Shown: one piece after another, positions 32,839 through 52,100 of the stretch
Numbering within the stretch: position 1 is the first letter of the stretch
Layout: every line of letters begins with the position of its first letter
NCBI GenBank assembly: GCA_016744535.1
Contig: JADGEE010000003.1
Coordinates: 4,328 to 68,327, forward strand
DNA: 64,000 nt
Origin: Campylobacteraceae bacterium
GTDB lineage: Bacteria; Campylobacterota; Campylobacteria; Campylobacterales; BB28
Reading direction: 5' to 3'
Translations under genes and position numbers: made by a program
Notes under the pieces: model-generated
Database searches by the model: none
Told to the model about the DNA's origin: nothing
What the model saw: the letters and a program-made list of their open reading frames with translations, nothing else

Positions 32839-32860
32839 AAGAGTAGCTAAGACTACTCTT
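32839..32860. terminator. hairpin terminator between prmC and the first flagellin
   Basis: It forms the hairpin aagagtag-ctaaga-ctactctt. On the minus strand it is followed by a long T-rich run. It overlaps the flagellin stop codon. Confidence 0.5.
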
Positions 32861-34346
32861 ACTGAAGTAATTTTAATACATTTTGTTGAACTTGATTTGC
32901 TTGAGACATAGCATAACTTCCAGATTGAGCTAAAATATTATTCTTTTGGAAATTTGCAGATTCACTTGCAAAATCAACATCTCTAATATTAGATTCACTA
33001 GCTTTTACATTTACTTGTGTAACAGAAATATTATTAACGGTTACATTTAATTGGTTTTGAACAGAACCTAAATCACTTCTAAGACTATCTAATTGTTTAA
33101 TAGCAGCATCAGCAATACTCATAACACTCATAGCACCCGCCATAGTAGTAACACCTGCACCAAGTGTACCAATATTAGAAGCATTTGTATTTTCAAAAGC
33201 ACCCATTGCGTCAGCTGTAGCACTATCAATTGTACCTTTTACAGAACCTAAATTTAAAATAGTTTCATTAACACCATTAGCAGTATCAAATCCACCTAAT
33301 GCAGTATCAGATGTTACAGCAATATCTTTACCTCCAGATTTTGTTAAAGTAAGTCTTCCATAACTCTCTTCAGTAGATGTAGCAAATCCAGCTACTGTAT
33401 CAATACCAGTACCACTAATAGTTATACCTCTACCATCTGTACTTCTTAAATTTAAGTTTCCTCTCTCATCAGTATAAGCTTCAACTCCTGTTAAATCTTT
33501 TACACTATTAATAGCATTTACTAATTTTCCATCAGAATCATTTGCTGCAACACCAGAGATTGACCCTACATCAACTCCATTAATATTAATGCTTGTTAAA
33601 TCTCCTGCTACAACTGAAGAAACTGATGTATTTACATTTGTCCAAGAAGCTTTAACTCCACCTAATCTATCAGAGTTTTTATTAATGGTTTCAGCTAAAG
33701 TTCCAATACCTGTTCCGACACTTGTTGAAATTACAACACTTTCTAATGAAACATCATTTTGTCCATCAACTGCACTAAAAGTTAAAGTTGATGTAACCCC
33801 ACCTGAAATAACATCTGAAGTTTCAAATCTAACATCTCCAACTTTAGCTGAATGAGTTGAACCAATACTTGCCTTTATAGTCTCATTTGAATAAGCACCA
33901 ACTTGAAATTTTTTATTAGTAAAACTTCCAGATAGTAAACTTTGTCCATTAAAAGTTGTAGTATTTGAAATATTATCAAGCTGTTCTAAAAGTCTTGTAA
34001 TATCAGCTTGAAGTGCTTTTCTTGTATCAGTAGTTTGCCCATCTTGAGCAGATTGTGTAGCCTTAGTTTTGATAGTATCAAGAATTTTAACTTGCTCATC
34101 CATCGCTTTATCAGCAATTTGAATAATACCTATTCCATCATTAGCATTTTTAATTGCTTGTCCAAGGGAATTTGCTTGATTTCTCAAACTATCAGCAATT
34201 GCCATACCTGACGCATCATCAGCAGCTTTATTAATTCTAAGCCCACTACTTAACTTCTCTAAAGAACCCGAAAGTGACTTATTTGTCAAAAGACCTTGTG
34301 AATGTGCATTCATTGCCGCAATATTTGTATTAACTCTAAAACTCAT
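32859..34346 (-). CDS. flagellin (most divergent of three paralogues)
   Basis: 495 aa with a conserved N-terminus ([15 protein letters not shown]...[19 protein letters not shown]) and C-terminus (...[23 protein letters not shown]...VLKLLQ). Confidence 0.95.
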
Positions 34347-34480: not shown

Positions 34481-35971
34481 TTATTGTAGCAATCTCTGTA
34501 CATTTTGTTGTAACTGATTTGCTTGAGATAAGGCATAACTTCCAGCTTGTGCTAAGATATTAAATTTTTGGAAACTAGCAGATTCACTTGCAAAATCAAC
34601 ATCTCTAATTTGAGATTCAGCAGCAGCTACATTAACTTGAGTAACTGAAATATTATTTACAGTTGTGTTAAATTGATTTTGAGTTGAACCTAAACCACTT
34701 CTAATTTGGTCAAGTTGCTTAATAGCAGCATCTGCAATATCCATCATACCCATAGCTCCAGCCATAGTTGTAACACCAGCTCCAAGTGGACCAGCATTTG
34801 CCACATTTGCATTTTCAAAAGCACCCATTGCATCAGCTGTAGCACTTGCAATTTGACCTTTCATAGCACCTAAATTTACAATTTCTTCACTAGCTCCACC
34901 ACCAGTAGCACTAAATCCACCTAAAACAGTATCAGCTGTTACAGTAATATCTTTACCACCAGATTTTGTTAAAGTTAATCTTCCATAACTCTCTTTAGAA
35001 GCTACATCAAATCCAGCTACTGTATCAACTCCAGTTCCACTAATGCTTATACCTCTACCATCTAAACTTCTTAAGCTTAAATTTCCTCTCTCATCAGTAT
35101 AAGCTTCAACACCAGTTTGATCTTTTACTGTATTAATAGCATTAACTAAAGTACCATCAGAGTCATTTGCAGCAACACCGGAAATTGTCCCAACATTAAT
35201 TCCATTAATAGCAACATCTGTAAGATCGCCAGCTCCAACTGAAGAGACTGATGTAGTTACATTTGTCCAAGAAGCTTTAACTCCACCTAATCTATCAGAG
35301 TTTTTATTAATTGTATCAGCTAATGCCCCAAGCCCTGTTCCAACACTAGTAGAAATTATAACACTCTCTAATGAAACATCATTTTGTCCATCAACTGCAC
35401 TAAAAGTTAAAGTTGAATTAACAGCTGTTGAAATTACGGTTGAAGTTTCAAATCTAACATCCCCAACTTTAGATGAGTGAGTTGAATTAACACTCATACC
35501 AATTGATTGATTTGAGTAAGCACCAACTTGAAATTTTTTATTAGTATAACTACCACTTAAAAGACTTTGTCCATTAAAACTAGTTGATGTAGCAATTCCA
35601 TCAAGTGCGCCTAAAAGTTTAGTAACATCAGCTTGAAGTGCTTTTCTTGTATCAGTAGTTTGTCCATCTTGAGCAGCTTGAGTAGCTTTAGTTTTAATAG
35701 TATCAAGAATCTTAACTTGTTCATCAATTGCTTTATCAGCAATTTGAATAATTCCAATTCCATCATTAGCATTTTTAATAGCTTGACCTAATGAATTTCC
35801 CTGACTTCTTAAACTATCAGCAATTGCCATACCTGAAGCATCATCAGATGCTTTATTAATTCTAAGACCACTACTTAATCTCTCTAATGATTGACCAAGT
35901 GCCTTAGAGTTCATATTTGATTGAACCTGTGCATTTAACGAGTTCATATTCGTGTTTATTCTAAAAGACAT
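34481..35971 (-). CDS. flagellin
   Basis: 496 aa and near-identical to the 36145..37635 product across most of its length. Confidence 0.95.
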   Translation of the reverse strand: MSFRINTNMNSLNAQVQSNMNSKALGQSLERLSSGLRINKASDDASGMAIADSLRSQGNSLGQAIKNANDGIGIIQIADKAIDEQVKILDTIKTKATQAAQDGQTTDTRKALQADVTKLLGALDGIATSTSFNGQSLLSGSYTNKKFQVGAYSNQSIGMSVNSTHSSKVGDVRFETSTVISTAVNSTLTFSAVDGQNDVSLESVIISTSVGTGLGALADTINKNSDRLGGVKASWTNVTTSVSSVGAGDLTDVAINGINVGTISGVAANDSDGTLVNAINTVKDQTGVEAYTDERGNLSLRSLDGRGISISGTGVDTVAGFDVASKESYGRLTLTKSGGKDITVTADTVLGGFSATGGGASEEIVNLGAMKGQIASATADAMGAFENANVANAGPLGAGVTTMAGAMGMMDIADAAIKQLDQIRSGLGSTQNQFNTTVNNISVTQVNVAAAESQIRDVDFASESASFQKFNILAQAGSYALSQANQLQQNVQRLLQ

Positions 35972-36144: not shown

Positions 36145-37635
36145 TTATTGAAGTAATGATTGAACTTGTTGTTGTAATTGATTTGCTTGAGATAATGCAT
36201 AACTTCCTGCTTGAGATAAAATATTATTCTTCTGAAAATTAGCAGATTCACTTGCAAAATCAACATCTCTAATTTGAGATTCAGCTGCATTTACATTAAC
36301 TTGAGTAACTGAAATATTATTTACAGTTGTATTAAACTGGTTTTGAGTTGAACCTAAAGAACTTCTAATTTGGTCAAGTTGTTTAATAGCAGCATCTGCT
36401 ATATCCATCATTGCCATTGCACCACCCATAGTTGTAACTCCAGAACCAAGCGAACCAACATTTGCAACATTTGCGTTTTCAAAAGCACCCATTGCATCAG
36501 CTGTAGCACTTGCAATTGCACCTTTCATAGCACCTAAATTTACAATTTCTTCACTAGCTCCACCACCAGTAGCACTAAATCCACCTAAAACAGTATCAGC
36601 TGTTACAGTAATATCTTTACCACCAGATTTTGTTAAAGTTAATCTTCCATAACTCTCTTTAGAAGCTACATCAAATCCAGCTACTGTATTAACTCCTGTT
36701 CCACTAATACTTATACCTCTACCATCTAAACTTCTTAAGCTTAAATTACCTCTCTCATCAGTATAAGCTTCAACACCAGTTTGATCTTTTACTGCATTAA
36801 TAGCATTAACTAAAGTACCATCAGAATCATTTGCAGCAACACCGGAAATTGTCCCAACATTAATCCCATTAATAGAGACATCTGTAAGATCACCAGATGC
36901 AACTGAAGAGACTGATGTAGTTACATTTGTCCAAGAAGCTTTAACTCCACCTAATCTATCAGAGTTTTTATTAATTGTATCAGCTAATACGCCTAGCCCT
37001 GTTCCAACGCTAGTAGAAATTATAACACTCTCTAATGAAACATCATTTTGTCCATCAACTGCACTAAAAGTTAAAGTTGAATTAACAGCTGTTGAAATTA
37101 CAGTCGAAGTTTCAAATCTAACATCACCAACTTTAGATGAGTGAGTTGAATTAACACTCATAGCAATTGTTTGATTTGAATAAGCACCAACTTGAAACTG
37201 TTTATTAGTATAACTACCATTTAATAAGCTCTGTCCATTAAAACTAGTAGATGTAGCAATCCCATCAAGTGCACCTAATAATTTAGTAATATCAGCTTGA
37301 AGAGCTTTTCTTGTATCAGTAGTTTGTCCATCTTGAGCAGCTTGAGTAGCTTTAGTTTTAATAGTATCAAGAATTTTAACTTGTTCATCAATTGCTTTAT
37401 CAGCAATTTGAATAATCCCAATTCCATCATTAGCATTTTTAATAGCTTGACCTAATGAGTTTCCTTGATTTCTTAAACTATCAGCAATCGCCATTCCTGA
37501 AGCATCATCTGCTGCTTTATTAATTCTAAGACCACTACTTAATTTCTCAAGAGAAGCACCCAATGCTTTACTCGTATTATTACTTTGAACCTGTGCATTC
37601 AATGAATTCACATTTGTGTTTATTCTAAATCCCAT
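36145..37635 (-). CDS. flagellin
   Basis: 496 aa, [15 protein letters not shown]...QVQSLLQ, with GGAGG 7 nt upstream of the start. Confidence 0.95.
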
Positions 37636-37777: not shown

Positions 37778-39970
37778 TTGAAAAATTTAATAATTGTTGA
37801 ATCCCCAACAAAAGCAAAAACTATTAAAAATTTTTTAGATAAAAATTATGAAGTTATTGCAAGTAAAGGTCATATTAGAGATTTACCAAAAAGCAGTTTT
37901 GGAATAAAATTTGAAAATGATATTTTTATTCCAGAATATAGAGTAAGTAGAGATTACTCTAAAATTTTAAAAGAGATAAAAACACTAGCTAAAAAAGCTG
38001 AAACTATCTATATCGCAACTGATGAAGATAGAGAGGGTGAAGCGATAGGTTTTCATATTGCTCACGCAATTGGAAAAAATCCTGAAGATTTACCTAGAAT
38101 TACTTTTCACGAAATTACTAAAAGTGCAATTTTACACTCACTTGAAAATCCTAAAAAATTAGATTTAGATAAAGTAAATGCACAACAAGCTAGAAGATTA
38201 CTTGATAGAATAGTAGGGTATAAGTTAAGCCCTTTATTATCTAGTAAAATTCAAAGAGGACTAAGTGCTGGAAGAGTTCAAAGTGCAACTTTAAAATTAA
38301 TTGTTAATAGAGATAAAGAGATTACAGATTTTAAACCTGTAACATATTTTAAAATTTTTGCTAAATTAAAAGAGAATGAGTTTAATTTAGCTGAATTTAA
38401 AAATAAGAAACTAGATAAATTAAGTATTAAAACAAAAGAGGAAGCTGATGAAATTTTACAAACTTTAAAAGTAGAAGAGTTTAAAGTTCAAAAAATTGAT
38501 ATAAAAGATAGAAAGACAAAAACTTCACCACCATTTATGACATCAACCCTACAACAAACTTCATCAAATACTCTCGGTTTTTCATCTAAAAAGACAATGG
38601 TTTTAGCTCAAATTTTATATGAGGGATTAAAGACTGATGAGGGACAAATGGGGCTTATCACTTATATGAGAACTGATTCATTATCTATTTCAAAAGAGGC
38701 AATAGAAGCATCAAGAGAGTATATAAAAGATAATTTCGATACAAAATATCTACCTAAAAAGGCTAAAATATACACTTCAAAATCAAAATCAGCACAAGAA
38801 GCTCACGAAGCAATTAGACCAACAAGGGTTGATTTTACACCTGAAATTGCAAAACAATATTTAAAAGATGATGAATTAAAACTATATAAATTAATTTATA
38901 ATAGATTCTTAGCTTCACAGATGGAAGATGCTATTTTTGAATCTCAAAGTATTTTGGTATCATCAGAGAATGGAATATTTAAAATAAATGGTAGAAAATT
39001 AAAATTTGATGGTTTCTATAAAGTTTATGGAGATATAGATAGAGATAAACTTCTGCCTGAACTTAAAGTTAATGAAGTTATAATTTTTGATGAAATTAAT
39101 TCAAGTAAACACCAAACAGAGCCACCACCAAGATTTTCTGAAGCATCTTTAATTAAAATGCTTGAATCACTAGGTATAGGAAGACCATCAACTTACGCCC
39201 CGACAATATCTATTTTACAATCAAGAGGTTATGTTGAAAGTGAAAAAAAACAACTTCACTCAACTGAAATTGCCCAAAAAGTGATAACTCTTTTAAGCAA
39301 ATACTTTAATGAAATAGTTAATAGCTCATTTACAGCAAATTTAGAAGAAAAACTTGATGAAATTGCAGAAGCAAATAAAAATTGGCAAGATGTTTTAAGA
39401 GAATTTTATGCACCATTTATGGAAAAAGTTGAGGATGGTAAAAAAAATATTCCAAGTCAAAAAGTTATAATTCCTATTGGAGAAAAGTGTCCAGATTGTG
39501 AAGAAGAATTAGTTAAAAGAAAAGGTAGATTTGGAGAGTTTATCTCTTGTAGTTCATATCCAAAGTGTAAATATACAAGAGCTATTGCAGAAGATGGTAA
39601 AGTTACTACAACAGATGAAAAGTGTGATAAGTGTGGTGCTGATATGGTTGTTAAAAGAGGTAGAAATGGCGAATTTTTAGCTTGTAGCTCTTATCCTGAT
39701 TGTAAAAGTACCAAACCATTAAAAGCACCTCCTGTACTTGAAGGCATTAACTGTCCTGATTGTGGAGGAGATATAATAGAGCGAAGTTCACGCAGAGGTA
39801 AATTTTTTGGATGTGCAAAATATCCTGATTGTAAATTTATATCAAAATTTGCACCAATTGACCCAAATATCAAAAAGTGTGCTGAGTGTGGATATAGTGT
39901 AGCTCAAAGAACTTATAGAAATAAAGAGGTTTATGAGTGTATTAAGTGTAAACATAGAGAAGATGTGTAA
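37778..39970 (+). CDS. topA: DNA topoisomerase I
   Basis: It has a Toprim domain (LIIVESPTKAKTI, DEDREGE), an active-site Tyr context (GLITYMRTDS) and four C-terminal CxxC...CxxC zinc ribbons. It has a TTG start. Confidence 0.95.
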   Translation: MKNLIIVESPTKAKTIKNFLDKNYEVIASKGHIRDLPKSSFGIKFENDIFIPEYRVSRDYSKILKEIKTLAKKAETIYIATDEDREGEAIGFHIAHAIGKNPEDLPRITFHEITKSAILHSLENPKKLDLDKVNAQQARRLLDRIVGYKLSPLLSSKIQRGLSAGRVQSATLKLIVNRDKEITDFKPVTYFKIFAKLKENEFNLAEFKNKKLDKLSIKTKEEADEILQTLKVEEFKVQKIDIKDRKTKTSPPFMTSTLQQTSSNTLGFSSKKTMVLAQILYEGLKTDEGQMGLITYMRTDSLSISKEAIEASREYIKDNFDTKYLPKKAKIYTSKSKSAQEAHEAIRPTRVDFTPEIAKQYLKDDELKLYKLIYNRFLASQMEDAIFESQSILVSSENGIFKINGRKLKFDGFYKVYGDIDRDKLLPELKVNEVIIFDEINSSKHQTEPPPRFSEASLIKMLESLGIGRPSTYAPTISILQSRGYVESEKKQLHSTEIAQKVITLLSKYFNEIVNSSFTANLEEKLDEIAEANKNWQDVLREFYAPFMEKVEDGKKNIPSQKVIIPIGEKCPDCEEELVKRKGRFGEFISCSSYPKCKYTRAIAEDGKVTTTDEKCDKCGADMVVKRGRNGEFLACSSYPDCKSTKPLKAPPVLEGINCPDCGGDIIERSSRRGKFFGCAKYPDCKFISKFAPIDPNIKKCAECGYSVAQRTYRNKEVYECIKCKHREDV

Positions 39971-40001
39971 CTCTCTATGTTTTTATTAAAAGGATAAAAT
40001 T

Positions 40002-41105
40002 ATGCAAGAGTTAAAATATAATTTAGAAGAGTTACAAAAAAAAGCTAAAGAGAGAACAGTTAAAACTCAAAATATTGAATATTCACCTGAAATGTTATTA
40101 AAAAGGGTAGATAATGGTGAAATAAAAATCAATCCTGAATATCAAAGAAGGCATAGATGGACTCCTGAAATATCATCTCGTTTAATAGAGAGTTTGATTT
40201 TAAATATTCCTATTCCTTTAATCTATTTGTCACAAGATATTGATATAGATGAAGAGACAAAAGAGGGAATAGCACGATATTCAATAATAGATGGACAACA
40301 AAGAGTTACAGCAATTATTAATTTTTTTAAAAATGAGTATCCCCTAACAAGTTTAGAGGTATTAAAAGAGTTAGAGGGAAATTATTTCAAAGATTTACCA
40401 CCATTTTTAGTAAGAAGATTAGAAGATAGGAGTATAAAATTTTTAAGAGTAGATTCAACTGCTGATTCCAAAGTTAAATATGATATTTTTGAGAGATTAA
40501 ACTCTGGTTCAGTTCACTTAGAACCACAAGAGTTAAGAAATTCTATATATAGAGGAAAATTTAATGATTTAATTAAAGAGTTATCAGTAGATGAAAATTT
40601 TAGAAAATTACTACAAATTGATTCAAATGAGCATAAAAAAGTAAAAAAGATGGAGGATGTAGAGTTAGTTTTAAGATTTTTTGCTTTAAGTAACAATGAT
40701 GGTTATAAAAATGTAAAGCAAGGAATTGTACATTTTTTATCTGAAGCTATGAAAAATTTTAATAAATTAAATAATGAAGAGTTAGAAGAGTTAAAAGATA
40801 AATTTAAAAAAGTAATGGAAGTTATACTTAAATTTTTTGATGACAAAGCATTTGCTAAATATAATGCAAGGAAAATAACACCTTTTAATACATCTGTTTA
40901 TGATGCACTTTCTATTGCTGTGGCAAAAGAAGTTGATTTAGATAATCCAAATATACCAAAAGAAAAAATAGAAAAGTTTAAAGACCTTTTTAAAAATGAT
41001 GAAGATAATAAATTTTTTATTTCTATAGATAATAATACTACTGATAGTCAAAAAATTATATATATAATAGATAGAGTGAGAAAGATATTATCAAATGGAA
41101 ACTAA
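40002..41105 (+). CDS. DUF262 (ParB/Srx-like) domain protein
   Basis: Motifs are PEYQRRHRW, IIDGQQRVTAI and FERLNSGSVHLEPQELRN. I see no DUF1524 His-Me nuclease half. Confidence 0.85.
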   Translation: MQELKYNLEELQKKAKERTVKTQNIEYSPEMLLKRVDNGEIKINPEYQRRHRWTPEISSRLIESLILNIPIPLIYLSQDIDIDEETKEGIARYSIIDGQQRVTAIINFFKNEYPLTSLEVLKELEGNYFKDLPPFLVRRLEDRSIKFLRVDSTADSKVKYDIFERLNSGSVHLEPQELRNSIYRGKFNDLIKELSVDENFRKLLQIDSNEHKKVKKMEDVELVLRFFALSNNDGYKNVKQGIVHFLSEAMKNFNKLNNEELEELKDKFKKVMEVILKFFDDKAFAKYNARKITPFNTSVYDALSIAVAKEVDLDNPNIPKEKIEKFKDLFKNDEDNKFFISIDNNTTDSQKIIYIIDRVRKILSNGN

Positions 41106-41895
41106 TTTATATGAATTAGTAAATACTTTAAATAATAGACAAAAAGAGATAGAAATATTAATTGAAGAGATTAAAATTCATCAAAATAATTTACAAAAAG
41201 AGGATTTATATAACTCTTTATGTAGAAGTACAACAATTTTAATTGTTTCTCATTTAGAGGGCTTTATGAAAGATTTGGCAAAAGCAATTATTGATGATAT
41301 AAATGAAAACTTAGACTTTCAAAATATAAATAACAATTTAAAAAAAGTTTTTTGTAAGAAGTTTTTAGGTGAGAAAAAACATGAAAGCGATAAAGAGTAT
41401 ATTGAACGCCAAAATGAGTTAATTAGTACTTTTAATAATTTAGATACAAAACTTACAAAAGAGCCTTTTTTATTTAAAGATAATAAAAATCCAAAATCTG
41501 ATGTTATTAATAAAATTTGTAATAATTTTGGAGTTAGAAATATATTTTCTCATTTAAAAAATTCTAAATTAGATATAGTTTTTGAAGATGATACACAAGA
41601 AATAAGTAATTTATTAGATGAATTATTAGAGTATATTTTAAATCAATTAAGAGTTTATCCTTTTAATTTGAATATTGAGATATTTGATTTGACTCAAAAA
41701 ACTATGCTAAAAGATGAAAAAACACCATTGGAAGAGTTTTTAGAAGAGTTATTAACTAAAAGACACAGTATTGTTCATGGTAATTCAATTAATAATGAAG
41801 AAATACCTGAAAGTTTAATTAGATACAAAAATAAATCATTAATATTACAATATGGAATTATAATAGTTATGATAAACAAGATTTTTACAAGGTAA
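41095..41895 (+). CDS. HEPN-like putative RNase (RiboL-PSP / MAE_28990-like)
   Basis: It has a C-terminal Rx4H motif (LLTKRHSIVHGNS) and an N-terminal SHLEGFMKDL helix. It overlaps the DUF262 gene by 11 nt. Confidence 0.65.
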   Translation: METNLYELVNTLNNRQKEIEILIEEIKIHQNNLQKEDLYNSLCRSTTILIVSHLEGFMKDLAKAIIDDINENLDFQNINNNLKKVFCKKFLGEKKHESDKEYIERQNELISTFNNLDTKLTKEPFLFKDNKNPKSDVINKICNNFGVRNIFSHLKNSKLDIVFEDDTQEISNLLDELLEYILNQLRVYPFNLNIEIFDLTQKTMLKDEKTPLEEFLEELLTKRHSIVHGNSINNEEIPESLIRYKNKSLILQYGIIIVMINKIFTR

Positions 41896-41899
41896 TAAT

Positions 41900-42418
41900 T
41901 TGAAAATAGGACTACTTTCAGATACACATAAAAAAATAGGTCGAGCTAAAAAAGTAATTGATTTATTGATTGAAAAAGAGGTTGATTATTTAATTCACGC
42001 AGGTGATATTGGTAAATTAGAAATTTTAGAATTTTTAAGAGATAGTAATATTTCTTATGTTGCAGTAATAGGGAATAATGACTATCATTTAGTTGATTAT
42101 TCTCATAAATTTAATTTAGTGAGAGAACCACACTATTTTAAATTAAAAGATTTAAAATTTAAATTGATGCATCATCCATTCTATTTAACTCCTGATGTTG
42201 ATGTTGTAGTTTATGGACATACTCATTTTAGTGAATTTGATTTAAAAAATGATACTCTATTTCTAAATGCAGGGGAAGTTTGTGCAAGAGATACAGGAAA
42301 AAGTGAATTTATGATTTTAGAAATTTTAGAGGATAAATATATAATTGATTACTATAATAGAATTATTAAAAGTAAAAATTGGAATATAAAAAGAATAGAA
42401 TATAAAAAAAACTTATAA
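41900..42418 (+). CDS. yfcE: YfcE/MJ0936-family metallophosphoesterase
   Basis: Motifs are MKIGLLSDTH, IHAGDIG, GNNDY and YGHTH. It has a TTG start. Confidence 0.8.
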   Translation: MKIGLLSDTHKKIGRAKKVIDLLIEKEVDYLIHAGDIGKLEILEFLRDSNISYVAVIGNNDYHLVDYSHKFNLVREPHYFKLKDLKFKLMHHPFYLTPDVDVVVYGHTHFSEFDLKNDTLFLNAGEVCARDTGKSEFMILEILEDKYIIDYYNRIIKSKNWNIKRIEYKKNL

Positions 42419-42420
42419 AT

Positions 42421-43497
42421 TTAATATATTAAACTATCTCTTACATCTTCATAAACTTTTGAATTTATCTCAATTTCATATTTTGAATTTTTTATAATTT
42501 TATCTAAAACTATAATAGCAGATAAATCATAAGCTAAGTTTGTAATTTTTTCTCTTATTTTCAGTTCTTCTTTAAAAGTTAATGGATTAAAAATCAACTC
42601 TTTTGTATTTTTATAATTTTTATTAGCTAATTTGTTAAGTGTATTAATATCAATTAATTTAACCTCATCTCTATTTAAATAGTAAATATTATTTATTTTA
42701 AACTCTACTTTTCCTTTTGTAATATTTTTTCTAATTTTTGAATAAGCCAAAATATAAGAATTAATTACTATTTTATTTACAATAACTTTTGCACTTAAGA
42801 GTCTATAATTTAAAAATCTATTTTTTACTATATTAAAATCTATTTTATTCTCTTCAAGTTCGATAACTTTTTTATATAACTCTATTCTATCTTCAATTGA
42901 TTCAGGCAATATTTGTCTATTTATAGATGAAAACAACTCATCAGCTAACTTATTTTGAATCTCTCTTTGTTTAGTAAGTCCAAAGATACAACCACAATAA
43001 TTTTGTTTATATAACTTATCTTGTTTAGCTAATTCAAATTGTTTTTGTGTTCCTCCACCACTTCTATAATCTACAAAAATAAATTCTCTATCGTAATTTT
43101 TACAAACTTTATCACCAGCATTTTTTAATTGCTCAAATGATTTTTTAGGGCTTGTAAGTAGTGTTGTTGTAACTCTTTTAATATTTAATTCTTTTGCTTT
43201 TTTTACACTAACTTCAAGTCTATCATCAAAGCAGATATTACATCTTTTTCCCTTTTCTGGTTCATCTTCAAAGCCTTTAATTTGCTCTAACCAATGAGTA
43301 TAATTATACTCACCCTCGATTAATTTAACTCCCAATTTTTTACAACTCCGCTTTACATCTAAAAGTCTTAATTTATACTCACTATAAGGGTGAATATTAG
43401 GATCATAAAAAAAAGCTATTAACTCTTCATCAAAATCATTTTTTAATCTTTGCAAAAAGTAATGAGAATCAACGCTACAACAGATATGAATTAACAT
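42421..43497 (-). CDS. queH: epoxyqueuosine reductase QueH (DUF208) with ~170-aa C-terminal extension
   Basis: The N-terminal ~185 aa carry the DUF208 Cys motifs (HICCSVDS, KRCNICF, NYCGCIFG). I do not recognise the remainder. Confidence 0.75.
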   Translation of the reverse strand: MLIHICCSVDSHYFLQRLKNDFDEELIAFFYDPNIHPYSEYKLRLLDVKRSCKKLGVKLIEGEYNYTHWLEQIKGFEDEPEKGKRCNICFDDRLEVSVKKAKELNIKRVTTTLLTSPKKSFEQLKNAGDKVCKNYDREFIFVDYRSGGGTQKQFELAKQDKLYKQNYCGCIFGLTKQREIQNKLADELFSSINRQILPESIEDRIELYKKVIELEENKIDFNIVKNRFLNYRLLSAKVIVNKIVINSYILAYSKIRKNITKGKVEFKINNIYYLNRDEVKLIDINTLNKLANKNYKNTKELIFNPLTFKEELKIREKITNLAYDLSAIIVLDKIIKNSKYEIEINSKVYEDVRDSLIY

Positions 43498-44293: not shown

Positions 44294-47200
44294 ATGGGAA
44301 ATATATTAAAAATAATTTTTAATTTTTGGATTTTAAATATTAGTTTACTCGGTGCCACCTATGAGATAGGAAGTGGTACATCTTATCAGGCTTCAGAAAC
44401 TCATCAGTTTTTACCTGGAACTTTTACAAACGCAAAAGTTCAAATTTTATTAACTGCTTCTGAATTATCAACAGCTGGTTTTTCAGGAGATATTAATGCT
44501 ATAGAGTGGTATGTTGAAACAGATAATACACCTACTGATGTTGTATATGATATATATATAGGACATATAATAAGTACAACTTTGCCAGATAATGCACTAT
44601 TTGATACAACATCGTTAAGTTTATTTGGAAATCAATTAGTTGATGTAGGAAGTTTCACAGGATGGCACGGCTCAAACTTAACTACTAATTTCACTTGGAA
44701 TGGAACAAGCAATATATTAATTCAAATTTGTAGAACAGGAAATTCAAATGGTGACAGTGATAATATAGCCTATTTTGCTGATGGTGGTATACAAATGATT
44801 ACAGGTTATTCTAACTCTTGTAGTGATACTACTGGAACTTATTCAAATACATTTAGACCTTTTTTAAGAATTTCTTCTACTCCACTAATTACAGACACAA
44901 CTCCTCCAACAGTAACAAGTATATTACCAAGTGGCTCACCAACTGCAAGTGACACAAGTGTAACTTTTACAGCTTCATTTAGTGAAGATGTAATAAATAT
45001 AGATACAAGTGATTTTGAATTAACAACAACAGGAACTGCAACTGGAAATATAGTTTCGACTTCAGTTTCTAGTGGAACTAGTGTTGATATTGTGGTTAAT
45101 ACTATTAGTGGAGTAGGCAATATTCGTTTAGATTTAGTAACAAGCCATAACTTAACTGATAGTGCTTCAAATGCTTTAAGTGGAGGATATAATAGTGGAA
45201 CTGTACATAGTGTAGATTTTAAACCAATATCCCCAAGCGATTTAGTAATAACGGCAATAAATGATACACAGATGAGTATAGATTGGGTTGATAATTCAAA
45301 TAATGAAGATAATTTTATACTATATAGCTCTACTAATGGGATTGATTATGAACTAAATGAAACTTTAGCCTCTGATACTATAACTAAATTAATGATGGAT
45401 TTAACTCCAAATACTATTTATTATTTTCAAATTGGTGCGATTAATAGTTATGGAGAAAATAATTCAAGCATTGAAAATAATTCAACATTTGCAACTCAAC
45501 CTATAGTACCAATCAATATTGGTGGCAATAGCAATTCAAATCAAATAGAATTAAATTGGAATGATAGTTCAACTATTGAAACAGGTTTTAAAATTTATAC
45601 CTCTACTGATGGAACTAATTATTCTTTAAATACAACAGTTGGTGCAAATACTACAAATGAAATAATAACAGGTTTGAGTGCAGATACAACATATTACTTT
45701 AAAATAAATTCATATATTCATATTAATTTACTTCTTACTAATTTTGATATAGTAATTAATACTCAAACAGTAACTATAAAAACAAATGACCCAGCTAATT
45801 TTACAGCATTTACAAATTTAAATAAAAATGAAGATTTTAGTGAATTTAATTTACGTATAATAGACTTAACAGACAATGACAGTGATAATTTAGTATTAAG
45901 CGTAGAAAACAATGATAGTTCACTTTTAAACATCACTAGAAGTTGGAATGCTAATTTAACATCAACAGAGTATAATTCTCAAGATTTTAATATCACTTTT
46001 ACATCAATAGCAAATACTTATGGAGTGGCAGAAATTAATGTAAGTAGTTATGACGGAAAAGATTATATAGATAATATATTTCAAATAGTTGTAAATGCCG
46101 TAAATGATATACCAATAATTACTTCAATTACAAACATATATAAAGATATAAATTTTAGTGAATTTAATATAAGTATAAATATTGATGATGTAGACACAAA
46201 TGAGTTAAATATAACAGTAGATGTAAACGATACAAGTTTAATTGATATGAATCAAACTTGGGATAATAATTTAAGTTATGAAGAATATCACTTACAAGAG
46301 TTAAATTTAACTGTAAAATCAAAATCAAATATAGAAGGAGTTGTAAGATTTACAATTTCAGCAGAAGATAATCAATTAAAACCAATTACAACATTTGATT
46401 TAAATATAAGTGCATATAATTATGCTTTAGAAGATTTAAATGCAATATCAATACCATTAACAACAATAGACAATATAGATTTATCTAGTATAGGAGCTAT
46501 AAATTCAAGTAATATAAGTTGGATTTCTAATAATACTGAAGTGCTAAATAGTAGTGGAGTTGTAAACAGGCAAATTAATAATGATGTAATTATAACCCTT
46601 ACAGCAACTTTAAATTTAATTAATACAACACTTACAAAAAACTTTGATATAACGGTAATTAGAATACCATATACTCCACCTCCCTATGTAGAATCAGAGT
46701 CAGAATCAGTTGTTGAAGAAATAACAACTGATAGTTTTAGTGAAGATAGTGGAGTAACACTTGAAATTAGCGAAGATGGAAGTACAAATTTTAATGTAAC
46801 TAGCGTAAGTGAAAGTGGTGAAGTAGTTGAAACACAAACAGAACTTCCATCAGGAACAGAAATTAGTATAAATGAAGCAGGAGAAATTGAGCAAAGTTTT
46901 GTAAGTGAAGATGGAACAGAAATAAAATTAACAACATCACAAACAGGAAAAGTAACACTAAAAGTAACAACAGCAAATGGAGAAGAGGTGAGCTTTGAAG
47001 CCCCAGCTGGGACGAAACTAAAAATAGCGGAAGATGGAAGTTCAAAACAAGATTACTCCACAAAAGATTCAAAAACAGAATTAAAAATAAGTGCAACTGG
47101 AGAGAGTGAATTAAATTTAAAATCAGAAGATGGAAACAAAGTAGAGTTAAAAAGCGAATTAGCTGGAAAAACGGAGTTAAAAGAGAGTGGAGGCTTTAAA

Positions 47201-49153
47201 CAGAGTTTTGAAACTGGAGATAATAAAATATCAATTGAGGGTTCTAAACAAGCAAACTCACAAGCGGTTATAGAGTTACCAAATTTAAAATTAACACTAA
47301 CACCTCCTAAAAATGGAAAAGTATCCGTTAAAAAAGATGGAAGTGTATCAATAGCAAATGACACAATAACTTCAATTGGAACAGTGAAAAGTGAAATGAG
47401 GGTAAATCCAGATACAGGAGATGCTTCAGTAGAGGTTAATATTCAAAGTAATCAAAGAGGAGTAGTCCCTAAAAAAATATTTTATTCAACTAGAAAAGAT
47501 ATATCAAATATAAAATTAGAAGTGATTTTAGATGAGCGAAAAGCTAAATCAAGAGCATTTAATAGCTCAAAAAGTAAAACAGGAAAAATAAAAGCAGTTT
47601 TTTCAACAAGAAAAAGCTTTAATTTTAAGGAAAATATATCAAGGGAAGTTAGTAATAGCTCATTAGGAGTTACACCTTTGAGTGATGCAGAGTTTGAAGA
47701 AAATTTATATTTTGATAATTCACAAGAGTTGAAATTGAAATCAGGAAGTGCAAATATAAAAGGATTTTTTAGCACTAGAGGAAGTTTTTCAAATAAGAGA
47801 AAAACCACAAATACGGATTTGATTAATAATAGAGATTTTAGTATGAAATCAAATAGTGCTATTATGAGTGAAAATAATATTATAGCAACTCTAAATGAGG
47901 GTAATTTAAAAACTGATTTACAAGCAAATTCAAATGGTGATTTAAACATTAATATCACTAATTTTACAAATACAAAAAGAGGTTTAAAAACAACAGCGAA
48001 AAAACTATTTTATTCAGTTAGAAAAGATTTTTCAAATGTGAAAGTAGAAATTATAGAAAATTCAAATCAAAGAGGATTTAAATCACCTAAAATTAAAACA
48101 CTTTTTTCAACAAGAGAAAGCTTTAATTTTAAATCCTCAAATTTAAGAACAGTAGATGAAATAGAGATAATTCCAGTAGATGAAAACACAACATTTACTG
48201 AAAATATATTAGAAGATGGAAGTAGATATATAGAGTTAATTTCAGGTACAGCTAGTATTAATAGTGAAACTATGATTTTAAATAAAAGTTATGAACTTCC
48301 TGCACTAGAATTAATTGAAGTGGTAGAAGATTTAATTATAAATCAAGAGGTAAAATTAGAGTTACAAAAAGAGTGGAATTTAATTTCAACTCCAATATCA
48401 GAAGATATTAGTGATAAATTTATATTTCAAGATTATGATTTAATTTGGAATTTTAAAGATAATAATTGGGTTAAGAATCCAAGCATTTTATATTATGAAG
48501 ATGGATATTGGATAAAAACAGATAGCGAAAATAATATAACTTTTAAAGGTAGTAGTTATACTCCTAACTTAAAAAGAGTTGTTTCAACTTGGGCATTAGT
48601 TGGAACTGGAACAGAAATTAATGATATAAATAATTTAATAAGTGAAGAAAAAATTAAAGAAATTTATCAATTTAAAGATAATAAATGGTTAAAGTCAAAT
48701 GATATTAATTCACTAAATATTGGTGATGGTTTTTGGATAAAAAAGATACCAGCAGATTTTATATTTAATATCAAAGAGGGTTGGAATTTACTATCACTTC
48801 CAACAAAAGAGATAATTTCAAATATGTCTATTTTTGGTGACTATGAAGAGATATTAATTTATGATAATAAAGAGTGGATTAAAAATCCAAACCAAATAAA
48901 GCCAATGCAGGGGTTTTGGATAAACTCTAATGAAAACATATCACTTGCTTTTTACGGAGAGGGATATAATATTGATATCAACTCTTTAAGTATTGGTTGG
49001 TCGCTTGTGGGCGGAAATATTAATTTTGAAAATTTAAAATTTTCTGAAATTAAATCAATATTACTATTTAAAAATGATAAATGGACTACGGTTGATTCTT
49101 TTAAAAATATTGATTTAATTAAAAAAGCTGATGGTTTTTGGATTTTAAAATAA
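44294..49153 (+). CDS. giant surface protein (Ig-like, 2x FN3, NDxP cadherin/tandem-95-like repeats, shared tail)
   Basis: 1619 aa with an N-terminal hydrophobic leader. It has an Ig-like segment (TDTTPPTVTSILP...) and two FN3 units (...TIYYFQIGAINSYG; ...TTYYFKINSY). It also has VNAVNDIPIITSI repeats and a bacterial Ig unit (ISWISNNTEVLNSSGVV...LTATL). From YVESESES onward it matches the tail of the next ORF. Confidence 0.85.
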   Translation: MGNILKIIFNFWILNISLLGATYEIGSGTSYQASETHQFLPGTFTNAKVQILLTASELSTAGFSGDINAIEWYVETDNTPTDVVYDIYIGHIISTTLPDNALFDTTSLSLFGNQLVDVGSFTGWHGSNLTTNFTWNGTSNILIQICRTGNSNGDSDNIAYFADGGIQMITGYSNSCSDTTGTYSNTFRPFLRISSTPLITDTTPPTVTSILPSGSPTASDTSVTFTASFSEDVINIDTSDFELTTTGTATGNIVSTSVSSGTSVDIVVNTISGVGNIRLDLVTSHNLTDSASNALSGGYNSGTVHSVDFKPISPSDLVITAINDTQMSIDWVDNSNNEDNFILYSSTNGIDYELNETLASDTITKLMMDLTPNTIYYFQIGAINSYGENNSSIENNSTFATQPIVPINIGGNSNSNQIELNWNDSSTIETGFKIYTSTDGTNYSLNTTVGANTTNEIITGLSADTTYYFKINSYIHINLLLTNFDIVINTQTVTIKTNDPANFTAFTNLNKNEDFSEFNLRIIDLTDNDSDNLVLSVENNDSSLLNITRSWNANLTSTEYNSQDFNITFTSIANTYGVAEINVSSYDGKDYIDNIFQIVVNAVNDIPIITSITNIYKDINFSEFNISINIDDVDTNELNITVDVNDTSLIDMNQTWDNNLSYEEYHLQELNLTVKSKSNIEGVVRFTISAEDNQLKPITTFDLNISAYNYALEDLNAISIPLTTIDNIDLSSIGAINSSNISWISNNTEVLNSSGVVNRQINNDVIITLTATLNLINTTLTKNFDITVIRIPYTPPPYVESESESVVEEITTDSFSEDSGVTLEISEDGSTNFNVTSVSESGEVVETQTELPSGTEISINEAGEIEQSFVSEDGTEIKLTTSQTGKVTLKVTTANGEEVSFEAPAGTKLKIAEDGSSKQDYSTKDSKTELKISATGESELNLKSEDGNKVELKSELAGKTELKESGGFKQSFETGDNKISIEGSKQANSQAVIELPNLKLTLTPPKNGKVSVKKDGSVSIANDTITSIGTVKSEMRVNPDTGDASVEVNIQSNQRGVVPKKIFYSTRKDISNIKLEVILDERKAKSRAFNSSKSKTGKIKAVFSTRKSFNFKENISREVSNSSLGVTPLSDAEFEENLYFDNSQELKLKSGSANIKGFFSTRGSFSNKRKTTNTDLINNRDFSMKSNSAIMSENNIIATLNEGNLKTDLQANSNGDLNINITNFTNTKRGLKTTAKKLFYSVRKDFSNVKVEIIENSNQRGFKSPKIKTLFSTRESFNFKSSNLRTVDEIEIIPVDENTTFTENILEDGSRYIELISGTASINSETMILNKSYELPALELIEVVEDLIINQEVKLELQKEWNLISTPISEDISDKFIFQDYDLIWNFKDNNWVKNPSILYYEDGYWIKTDSENNITFKGSSYTPNLKRVVSTWALVGTGTEINDINNLISEEKIKEIYQFKDNKWLKSNDINSLNIGDGFWIKKIPADFIFNIKEGWNLLSLPTKEIISNMSIFGDYEEILIYDNKEWIKNPNQIKPMQGFWINSNENISLAFYGEGYNIDINSLSIGWSLVGGNINFENLKFSEIKSILLFKNDKWTTVDSFKNIDLIKKADGFWILK

Positions 49154-49185: not shown

Positions 49186-52100
49186 ATGAAAAATATATTT
49201 TTAAAAATTATAGTATTAATTCTATTTTTTTTAGTAACTTTTGTAAATGCAGATATAAATATATCTCAAAAAGCCCACGCTGGAGTAATGCAATTTAATG
49301 GAACAAGTTATATTATAGCTTCAGAACCAAATTTAACAACATATAATACATTTACTTCTGAAGCTTGGTTTCAACCAAGTTATATGTTAGATGGAACTAA
49401 TTATGATTTAGTTAGAGTAGATGATCAATTAATTAGAATTTCTTATTCTGGAGGATCATATTATTTACTTGTTGGTATCGGCTCTGGTTTAGGATATGAA
49501 GAGTTTACTACAGATATTTCATCAATTTTTGAAATAAATAATTGGAATCATGTAACTATGACTTATGATGGTGATTTTATTAGAGGATATATAAACGGTG
49601 AAGAAGTTATAAATTCTAATAAAACTAATGATGGAAACTTAATAAATGGAGATAATGATAATAACTTAACCATAGGAATCTCTACAACCACAACATATGG
49701 ATATGTAAATCTGTTTAAAGGTTTAATGGATGAAGTTAGAGTTTGGAATATAGCTAGAAGCTCAACAGAAATTAATTCAACAATGAATAAACAATTAGAT
49801 GGAAATGAGAGTGGATTAGTAGCATATTATAATTTTGATGAAGTTGTTGGAAATATTGTAATAGATATTGCTAATAGTGATTATAATGGAACAATTGAAG
49901 GAAATGGCACAAGACTTAATTTTTTAGGAGATGGTCTTAATTTTGATGGAGATGATGATTATGTAAATATTAATGATGATAATTCTACAAATACTCATTT
50001 ATATGCTTTAGATGGAAATATTACACTTAGTAGTTGGATTAAAATAGATGGACTTCATAGTACAACTTATTCAGAAGTTATAAGTAGATATGGAACTAGC
50101 AATGGATATATTTTAAGAGTAAAGAATAGTAGTGGTATTATCCAAATGGTAAATAAAAATGCAGATACAGAACATAATATATCTAGTACAAAAGCTATTA
50201 CCGATAATCTATGGCACTATATAGTAGCCACTTATGATGGGAGTTACCAAAGATTATACATTGATGGGATTGAAAATAATTCTACTTATGTTGGTGCTAA
50301 CGCCATTGGTGCTTCTGCTGGTACATTAACTTTTGGTGCTACAAGCACATTAGTTAGTGAATTAAAAGGAAATATAGCAGAAACTTCAATTTGGAATAGA
50401 GCTTTAAGTGAGAGAGAAATTAATAAGTATATGTATATTTCATTAGATGGAAATGAGAGTGGATTATTAGGTTACTGGTCACTAAATGAAGGCGATGGTA
50501 ATATAACTTATGATAGAAGTTCTTATGCTAATGAAGGAAATATAAGTGGTGCAGAGTGGAACACCACAGCCCCAATAATTTATGGAAATAATTTATATAC
50601 GCAAGGATTATCTACTAAAATAGTTAAATTAAATGTAGAAAATAATATAACAGAAGCAATACTAGCTGACCCTTTAACTCCTGCAAATGGAAGTGTAGAT
50701 TTTAACTCTTCATTTGCTACATATAGTTATATTCCAACTGATTATATAGATGATACTTTTATAATTAATGCAAATGATACTTCAACAGAAGCAAATTTAA
50801 CCATTAATATTAAAAAAAGAAATATGTATGGTCTAATAGATACAAATGAATCAGTAAATTTTGGATTAACTGATGTAGCTGTTACAAAAACTTTGACTAT
50901 TAATAATTTAAATTTAGGTGATTTAATAATAGATAATGTCTATCTTACAAATAGTTTTAATTCAACTTTTGAAATAGTTAATAATTGTAGCACTGCTTTA
51001 TCAGCAAATACAAGTTGTGATATTAATATAACTTACACTCCTCAAATAAATGATTTTAGAGCAACTACATTACAAATAGAATCAAATGATGCTTTTGATT
51101 CTAATAAAAATATTATGATTTATGGTTATGGACAGGGTTTTGGAGAGATAAAAGGAAATGCTAACCACTCCTTAGCAGTTAAAAGAGACAATACTCTTTG
51201 GGCTTGGGGAAATAATTTAGAAGGACAACTTGGAGATGGAACTAATACAGATAGCAATACACCTATTCAAATATTAACAGATGTAATATCAGTAGATGGA
51301 TATGACCATACTCTAGCACTTAAAAAAGATGGAACTCTTTGGGCTTGGGGAAATAACACTTACGGACAACTTGGAGATGAAAATGATACAAATTTAAATA
51401 CACCAACTCAAATATCATTAAATAATATAGTAAAATTGGAAACTGGTGGTAATCACAGTATGGTATTAGATAGTAATGGAAAAGTTTGGAGTTGGGGATA
51501 TAATGCAAATGGAGAACTTGGAGATGGAAATAATACAGATTTAAATATACCAACTAAAATATCTTCATTAACAGATATAGTTTCAATTTCAGCAGGTGGC
51601 AATCATAATTTAGCCCTAAAAAATGATGGTAGTGTATGGAGTTGGGGAAAAAATCATAAGGGGCAATTAGGAGATAATTCAATTGTAAATAATTCTACAC
51701 CAACTAAAATATCCTCACTAAGTAATATAATTTATATATCTGCTGGAAATGCTCATAATTTTGCAATAAAAAATGATGGAACGATTTGGGGATGGGGATA
51801 TAATGGAGTTGGAGCATTAGGTGACGGAACTAATACAGATAGATATGCACCAACTCAAATCACTTCATTAACTGATATCTTATTCATTGAGAGTGGAGGT
51901 GACCATACTTTAGCGTTAGATAGTAATAACATTCTTTGGAGTTCAGGATATAATGTATCAGGGCAACTTGGTGACGGAAATAATACAGATAAAAATACCT
52001 TTACTCAAATATCTTCACTAAGTGATATAAAGATAGTAATTGGAGGAGATAAAGATACTTTAGCAGTAGATAATAATGGAAGTGTCTGGAGTTTTGGGGA

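Follow-up and report, generated by a model that had tools for sequence, protein, structure and literature searches.

A DUF262-HEPN gene pair inserted between topA and yfcE of a Campylobacteraceae bacterium, a probable anti-phage module

The gene pair and its two proteins

The window analysed here is a stretch of 64,000 nucleotides (nt) of contig JADGEE010000003.1 from a Campylobacteraceae bacterium (assembly GCA_016744535.1), and coordinates are window positions unless another record is named. In this window, topA is separated from the gene of a YfcE-family phosphodiesterase by two open reading frames (ORFs) with the same orientation, where ORF1 encodes a DUF262 protein and ORF2 a protein that, judged by its profile matches, is a HEPN protein of the RiboL-PSP/MAE_28990 clade. 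The pair is the widespread long-HEPN form of a known DUF262-HEPN architecture, which has been validated as the defence system PD-T4-2.

The two genes are tightly packed (Table 1). Direct reading of the sequence gives an 11-nt overlap of ORF1 and ORF2, which suggests translational coupling, and only the four nucleotides TAAT lie between the ORF2 stop and the yfcE start. The spacer in front of ORF1 has no room for a promoter of its own, a scan of it found no terminator on the plus strand, and promoter-like sites were not in excess of the expectation from shuffled sequence; such scans carry little information in sequence of 27% GC. Since the cassette begins 31 nt after topA, without an intervening terminator, it is probably co-transcribed with topA. 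It lies within the ancestral topA-yfcE transcription unit and is probably expressed by read-through transcription from topA. The coordinates, the overlap and both spacers given in the initial annotation of this DNA were confirmed by this reading, and the motifs quoted there, PEYQRRHRW (ORF1 residues 45-53), DGQQR, FERLNSG (163-169), ELRN (177-180), SHLEGF (ORF2 residues 52-57) and KRHSIVHG (222-229), are all present.

Table 1. Positions of the gene pair, its conserved motifs and the neighbouring genes in the window (aa, amino acids; A2 and A3, alignments described in the text).
Feature	Position	Strand	Details
ORF1	40002-41105	+	367 aa; ATG 40002, TAA 41103-41105
DUF262 motif I, QRxxxW (Q48-W53)	40143-40160	+	Q48, R49 and W53 invariant in A2
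DUF262 motif II, DGQQR (D97-R101)	40290-40304	+	all five residues invariant in A2
DUF262 motif III, FxxxN (F163-N167)	40488-40502	+	F163, E164, L166 and N167 invariant in A2
ORF2	41095-41895	+	266 aa; ATG 41095, TAA 41893-41895
SHLEGF helix segment (S52-F57)	41248-41265	+	E55 invariant, G56 near-invariant in A3
EPFLF..NKNP....FG segment (about F125-G146)	41467-41535	+	conserved in A3
Rx4H motif (R223-H228) in KRHSIVHG	41761-41778	+	HEPN catalytic motif
topA	37778-39970	+	from ORF list; TAA stop 39968-39970 read from the DNA
topA-ORF1 spacer	39971-40001	+	31 nt; AAGGA ribosome-binding site
YfcE-family phosphodiesterase gene	41900-42418		172 aa; TTG start 41900; TIGR00040 1.1e-22, PF12850 1.1e-25
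QueH homologue gene	42421-43497	-	358 aa; PF02677 6.7e-60
Flagellin paralogue, third	32859-34346	-	495-496 aa
Flagellin paralogue, second from topA	34481-35971	-	495-496 aa
Flagellin paralogue, nearest topA	36145-37635	-	495-496 aa
Giant ORF	44294-49153	+	1619 aa
Giant ORF	49186-56178	+	2330 aa

ORF1 matches PF03235 (GmrSD_N/DUF262) over residues 35-183 with an E value of 5.3e-27, and a Pfam scan found no match to DUF1524 (PF07510) in ORF1, ORF2 or the neighbouring genes, so that the initial annotation was right to describe a DUF262 protein without the DUF1524 half. The three DUF262 motifs, as defined in PMC12065111, do not vary in A2, an alignment of 24 ORF1 homologues. The second of them, DGQQR, is the predicted centre of nucleoside triphosphate (NTP) binding and hydrolysis, and HEC-06, a GmrSD-like system, loses its defence activity upon mutation of the Q/R residues of this motif (bioRxiv 10.1101/2024.01.29.577857). 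The AlphaFold2 model of ORF1 has a mean confidence (pLDDT) of 78, and its best fold matches in the PDB are BrxU (7p9m/7p9k, probability 1.0), followed by ParB CTPases. Among the PADLOC models, that of NsnA (PDLC03877; E 3.9e-83, residues 13-364) outscores PD-T4-2_A (PDLC04027; E 4.9e-46), which aligns ORF1 residues 32-362 to profile positions 43-360 of 363 and also matches all 24 DUF262 proteins of the family; weaker matches to HEC-05/06 and SspE occur across the DUF262 family. ORF1 is, then, a ParB-fold DUF262 NTPase domain followed by a C-terminal helical domain, i.e., of the NsnA type (ParBDB in PMC12065111). It has 4182 homologues, and the best 120 are 52-81% identical to it, all but one 52-63%; those among the best 120 that carry names come from Cyanobacteria, Bacillota, Bacteroidota, Verrucomicrobia and Planctomycetes.

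ORF2 matches both PF18735 (RiboL-PSP HEPN; E 1.4e-17, 64.7 bits against a cut-off of 28.4) and PF18737 (MAE_28990-like HEPN; E 6.2e-12, 46.6 bits against 26.8), and no PIN domain was found in it by the Pfam scan. Since these two scores exceed the gathering cut-offs and PF03235 matches ORF1 at the E value given above, the motifs of ORF1 and ORF2 are not chance matches, and the clade and the Rx4H motif named for ORF2 in the initial annotation stand. In A3, an alignment of 56 sequences, R223 is invariant, while H224, H228 and G229 are near-invariant, and the Rx4H motif falls within the last 90 residues in 73 of 75 full-length HEPN partners. Upstream, H53, E55 and G56 are invariant in another alignment, A1. 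Between these two elements lies a conserved segment in which F125, N130, N132 and G146 are near-invariant in A3, and which falls in the approximately 85 residues that ORF2 has in addition to HEPN partners of about 170-180 aa. The AlphaFold2 model of ORF2, for which an alignment of 11 sequences was the input, is all-alpha, with a pLDDT of 91 and a predicted TM score (pTM) of 0.90. Searches of the PDB by sequence profile with the ORF1-family and ORF2-family alignments gave no match.

A word-seeded search with ORF2 returned 11 proteins only, identical to it by at most about 42-45%; an exhaustive profile search returned 281 representative clusters at E<=1e-3, 123 of them at E<=1e-30, with lengths mostly of 255-280 aa.

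Pairing, spread and insertion

To see how regularly the two genes occur together, consider the loci that were fetched with the ORF1 profile, 80 from metagenomes and 7 from viral contigs of IMG/VR, in which the gene downstream of the DUF262 gene was scored with a hidden Markov model (HMM) of the ORF2 family. Over 92 loci from metagenomes, genomes, plasmids and viral contigs, a HEPN homologue directly follows the DUF262 gene wherever there was sufficient downstream DNA (about 85 loci), mostly with a gene overlap of 1 or 4 nt. When 2775 pairs of loci are compared, the mean identity is 57% for the DUF262 proteins and 34% for the HEPN proteins, and the identities of the two partners correlate with r = 0.86. 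From this it follows that the two genes are inherited as a unit, in which the HEPN gene evolves much faster than its partner.

In one locus (L006, 4127-5249), the DUF262 gene looks broken into two ORFs and the HEPN gene next to it is whole, which would seem to speak against a toxin-antitoxin relationship; the break turned out to be a scaffold gap of ten N's and no sign of a pseudogene.

The module is found on a conjugative Klebsiella aerogenes plasmid (pC9_001) and on 7 IMG/VR contigs, and it adjoins integrases in some loci. The genes around it are rich in defence functions: 148 ORFs that flank the family loci match 429 PADLOC models (E<=1e-5), with strong matches to GajB of Gabija (9e-137), the Type II methyltransferase model MTase_II (7e-150), the Type II restriction enzyme model REase_II (4e-89) and DRT (3e-116), and 148 control ORFs that flank topA in related loci match 19. 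The test is crude, and redundant models inflate the number 429, but the contrast with 19 is still large.

The position of the pair was compared with that in relatives by a TopA scan with one genome per species, which gave 80 Campylobacterota loci, the best with 77% TopA identity and most with 55-68%. The initial annotation had named variable presence next to topA as a property to be checked, and such variability is found: homologues of ORF1 and ORF2 were detected by tblastn of the window proteins in 0 of the 80 loci, and yfcE directly follows topA in about 50 of them, usually at a distance of 0-100 nt. In these loci flaA often precedes topA, which is also its place in the window. Because the pair is absent from the 80 topA loci and topA-yfcE adjacency is common among them, the pair is an insertion: the ancestral gene order is flaA-topA-yfcE, and the DUF262-HEPN pair has been inserted between topA and yfcE.

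The same junction holds a HepT-like HEPN gene together with an MNT nucleotidyltransferase gene in two other Campylobacterota metagenome-assembled genomes (MAGs) (L035, 8136-8886; L073, 2069-2729). The junction thus repeatedly receives small cassettes of HEPN type, for which it seems to be a small hotspot.

A few further observations concern the junction and the surroundings. The topA-yfcE gap is widened to 210-510 nt in three loci (L019, L032 and L056). The closest TopA relative (L011, DZAY01000047.1; 77%) is a MAG from a sulfidic cave with the doubtful label Helicobacter cetorum, in which topA is followed not by yfcE but by genes that, named from their ORF translations only, are aroQ-, aminopeptidase-, folK-, flhF- and flhG-like. 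Upstream of topA in the window are three tandem flagellin paralogues, with 94% identity between the two that lie closest to topA and 79% between either of these and the third. Downstream of yfcE, the QueH homologue has its Pfam domain in residues 1-174 only, and its C-terminal extension of about 180 aa has no family assigned to it. Farther downstream are the two adjacent giant ORFs, of which the first contains many repeated segments rich in Thr, Ser and Asn and probably encodes a surface protein.

The defence reading and its rivals

The association of DUF262 with HEPN was predicted in 2013. The initial annotation held that this pairing was known from computation only and had not been characterised experimentally, and this is outdated, since PD-T4-2 protects E. 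coli K-12 against phage T4. PD-T4-2 was isolated from E. coli ECOR65 and described as 'DUF262, HEPN' (Vassallo et al. 2022, PMC9519451). Its component B is assigned by HHpred to PF18735 (97.8%) and also to PF18737 in the supplement of that paper, and its deletion sensitises the native strain ECOR65 (PMC9519451). Both a review and the 2025 study of the Menshen system (PMC12065111) place PD-T4-2 among the DUF262 systems. No published mechanism was found for it, and a preprint of February 2026 (bioRxiv 10.64898/2026.02.22.705581) only names it.

Against this background, the pair in the window is probably a horizontally acquired, self-contained anti-phage or anti-mobile-element module of two genes with PD-T4-2 architecture, in which a DUF262 sensor would control an abortive HEPN RNase effector. 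What the analysis itself shows is which domains the two proteins have, that their catalytic motifs are conserved, that the partners are strictly paired and diverge together, that the pair is accessory and mobile, and that defence genes abound around its relatives. That the module probably serves defence, as the initial annotation also had it, is concluded from the likeness of ORF1 to NsnA and PD-T4-2_A over its full length, from these neighbourhoods and from the occurrence on plasmids and viral contigs.

Several observations weigh against this reading, and they concern the effector, the base composition and the surroundings. A Foldseek search of the PDB with the ORF2 model gave nothing significant, and the HEPN fold is backed by the HMMs and by a single match in BFVD, where a phage MAE_28990-like HEPN protein has rank 2 (probability 0.98, TM 0.55, E 0.23). 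Since the PDB search was negative and there is this one probable match, the assignment of ORF2 to HEPN rests on the HMMs and the motif. Furthermore, the PD-T4-2_B model matches neither ORF2, at E<=1, nor any of its 55 relatives (0 of 56 HEPN partners), although the model is functional in that it weakly recognises the HEPN partner of E. coli NRG 857C (2e-4), and when the profile of the long HEPN proteins is aligned by hhalign with a short E. coli partner, only the region of the Rx4H motif (RHxxAH) aligns. From this it follows that the homology of the effector to PD-T4-2 component B rests on shared Pfam membership. As to composition, the GC content at third codon positions (GC3) is 0.13 for the pair and 0.09-0.12 for the neighbouring genes, and because the pair resembles the host genes in this respect, its composition does not point to a recent transfer, although no other long ORF of the window has a GC content as low as that of ORF2. 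Finally, the pair does not lie in a clear defence island, judged by the 43 other ORFs that were scanned out of the 47 in the window with at least 100 aa, a scan that left out the pair itself and the two giant ORFs. One of these 43 proteins matches the PADLOC models of PycC, the Pycsar cyclase, with E values down to 1e-28, and could be either a nucleotide cyclase of the usual kind or a component of a Pycsar-like system.

How such a module could work may be outlined as follows, where the physical interaction of ORF1 with ORF2, the trigger, the RNA substrate and the abortive outcome are what we infer from homology. ORF1, with the proposed role of sensor and regulator, would most likely bind invading DNA or a feature typical of phage DNA, e.g., modified bases, and binding and hydrolysis of NTP by ORF1 would be the switch. 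For SspE, an NTP switch of this kind has been demonstrated; for GmrSD, BrxU and NsnA, it is a proposal. ORF2, with the proposed role of RNase effector, would, owing to the 11-nt overlap, be produced in a stoichiometric quantity and be held inactive by ORF1 until the trigger arrives. The triggered ORF1 would then release or activate ORF2, tRNA or mRNA would be cut, translation would stop and the infection would be aborted. The initial annotation had put forward a sensor and effector model of this type, and the same model has been proposed in the literature for related systems with DUF262 (PMC12065111).

Two rival explanations deserve to be weighed, both unlikely. The first is that the pair is a toxin-antitoxin addiction module, in which HEPN is the toxin, DUF262 a proteic antitoxin, and persistence is due to post-segregational killing. 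The compact, overlapping operon with its strictly co-inherited partners would be as expected for such a module, as would the occurrence on plasmids, and HepT/MNT toxin-antitoxin pairs occupy the same topA-yfcE junction in two other genomes. However, the putative antitoxin is an enzyme of 367 aa with invariant NTPase motifs and is far more conserved than its partner (57% versus 34%), unlike a fast-evolving antitoxin; the neighbours of the family loci are defence genes, and what has been validated for the relative PD-T4-2 is phage protection (PMC9519451). Toxin-antitoxin and abortive-infection roles are, moreover, mutually compatible.

It is likewise improbable that the pair is a modification-dependent restriction system resembling Type IV, in which the DUF262 protein would detect modifications on phage DNA, as GmrSD, BrxU and SspE do, while its partner supplies or recruits DNA cleavage, with direct immunity as the result. 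That BrxU is the best structural match of ORF1, that weaker PADLOC matches to HEC-05/06 and SspE run through the family, and that PD-T4-2 was selected on T4, the DNA of which is glucosyl-hydroxymethylated (PMC9519451), all fit this explanation, but neither DUF1524 nor any other DNase domain was found in the pair, and ORF2 has the Rx4H motif of HEPN proteins, where the HEPN enzymes that have been characterised are RNases (PMC3710099).

A housekeeping role of a core operon, tied to topA and chromosome handling, e.g., as a ParB-like partition or topology factor, would account for the ParB fold of ORF1 and for the probable co-transcription with topA, from which no terminator separates the pair, but it is very improbable when the pair is absent from 80 of 80 related topA loci, its homologues occur in unrelated contexts over many phyla and its closest HEPN homologue shares no more than about 42-45% identity.

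Comparison with known systems

The comparison of the window pair with PD-T4-2 itself (RCO39066.1 and an unannotated partner, ECOR65 contig QOYX01000002, 338334-339873) was made through the PADLOC models and the published description. In both cases, a DUF262 gene of about 360 aa without DUF1524 is followed by an adjacent, co-oriented HEPN gene of PF18735/PF18737, and the match of ORF1 to the PD-T4-2_A model is a full-length one. They differ in the effector, in that ORF2 has 266 aa and the PD-T4-2_B model 168 positions, and in that the EPFL..NKNP..FG segment is extra to ORF2.

Three further pairs, each with an effector that is a PF18735 member, extend this comparison. The E. coli IncX1 plasmid p94EC-4 (L181, NZ_CP047580.1, 21371-23011) has a DUF262 protein of 365 aa with a HEPN partner of 180 aa, and E. 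coli NRG 857C (L184, NC_017634.1, 1208536-1210252) has proteins of 387 and 182 aa, and on these two pairs the PD-T4-2 models score no better than on the window pair. A plasmid of Acinetobacter baumannii ATCC 17978 has a DUF262 protein of 376 aa with a HEPN protein of intermediate length (237 aa). The profile of the long HEPN proteins aligns its hlEGf helix and its FL..K.P..G.K.IF segment to this 237-aa protein, and for the E. coli partners of 180-182 aa only the RHxxAH region is aligned.

As to the surroundings of the two E. coli pairs, the one carried by IncX1 plasmids such as p94EC-4 lies directly after the replication initiator gene, beside H-NS and a plasmid gene for a type IA topoisomerase, a neighbour that echoes the topA adjacency in the window, probably by coincidence, and this pair recurs, at 95-100% identity, in 12 complete genomes of E. 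coli. In NRG 857C, a remnant lambdoid prophage has its capsid genes interrupted by the pair, which has chromosomal matches in about 30 complete E. coli genomes.

PD-lambda-5, a 'ParB/HEPN, methyltransferase' system from the same screen as PD-T4-2 (PMC9519451), is also validated. It differs by having ParB and HEPN fused and accompanied by a methyltransferase, where the window has separate proteins and no adjacent methyltransferase, and the PADLOC models of PD-Lambda-5 have no match in the window pair. The HepT-MNT toxin-antitoxin pairs are similar to the present cassette in being small HEPN Rx4H modules at the same topA-yfcE junction in two genomes, and different in having an MNT nucleotidyltransferase as partner and a HEPN domain of PF01934. 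DARNA/PD-T7-3 is a HEPN tRNA anticodon nuclease that is activated by a DNA signal (bioRxiv 10.64898/2026.02.22.705581). It follows the logic proposed here, in that a DNA signal is received by a non-catalytic part, the HEPN Rx4H site cuts tRNA and the infection aborts; being a single polypeptide with a Pds5-like sensor that binds single-stranded DNA, and without DUF262, it is a mechanistic analogue and not a relative.

Menshen (NsnABC; Millman et al. 2022; Li et al. 2025, PMC12065111) shares with the window pair the build of its NsnA, i.e., a ParB-DUF262 domain and a C-terminal helical domain, and the logic of a sensor plus an RNase has been proposed for both. True Menshen loci consist of a DUF262 gene, a DUF3696/AAA ATPase gene and a gene for a hypothetical protein, and ORF1 is 31-32% identical to the NsnA proteins of such loci on Campylobacter jejuni and Klebsiella pneumoniae plasmids. 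In the window, there is neither an NsnB ABC-ATPase/DUF3696 gene downstream of ORF1, where the HEPN gene and then yfcE are found, nor a third gene for NsnC (an inactive PIN plus an effector), and Menshen effectors are reported to be shuffled, whereas the DUF262-HEPN partners co-diverge (r = 0.86). The identity of ORF1 is 56-58% to DUF262 proteins linked to long HEPN proteins, 32% to that of Acinetobacter and 24-28% to those linked to the short HEPN proteins of E. coli. Together with the value for Menshen NsnA, this means that the DUF262 sensor family radiates about equally to HEPN-linked and Menshen-linked forms, and on these sequence identities it looks like one conserved sensor that has been combined with different effector modules. 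GmrSD, BrxU and SspE have the same DUF262 NTPase domain with QRxxxW, DGQQR and FxxxN, and BrxU is the best PDB fold for ORF1, but they possess a DUF1524 His-Me nuclease in place of which the window pair has a separate HEPN effector.

Since the architecture is of a defence kind that has already been validated, the instance in the window adds little when taken alone. It belongs, however, to a large and sharply defined subfamily, with 281 HEPN clusters and thousands of DUF262 partners from Cyanobacteria to Bacillota, which PADLOC v2 would miss or half-annotate as NsnA, because only component A is recognised, and that best as NsnA of Menshen. With a conserved sensor and a fast-evolving effector that are strictly co-inherited, it also offers a clean minimal system for the control of an RNase by a ParB-fold NTPase, a question that it shares with PD-T4-2 and Menshen. 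Tentatively, the subfamily with long HEPN proteins, of about 265 aa and carrying the conserved EPFL..NKNP..FG insert, might be a distinct defence system that the catalogues miss, in which an NsnA-type NTPase gates the HEPN RNase directly, with no ATPase as transducer. If this were so, one conserved DNA sensor would be wired to alternative effectors: HEPN alone in the present pair, NsnB-NsnC in Menshen and DUF1524 in GmrSD.

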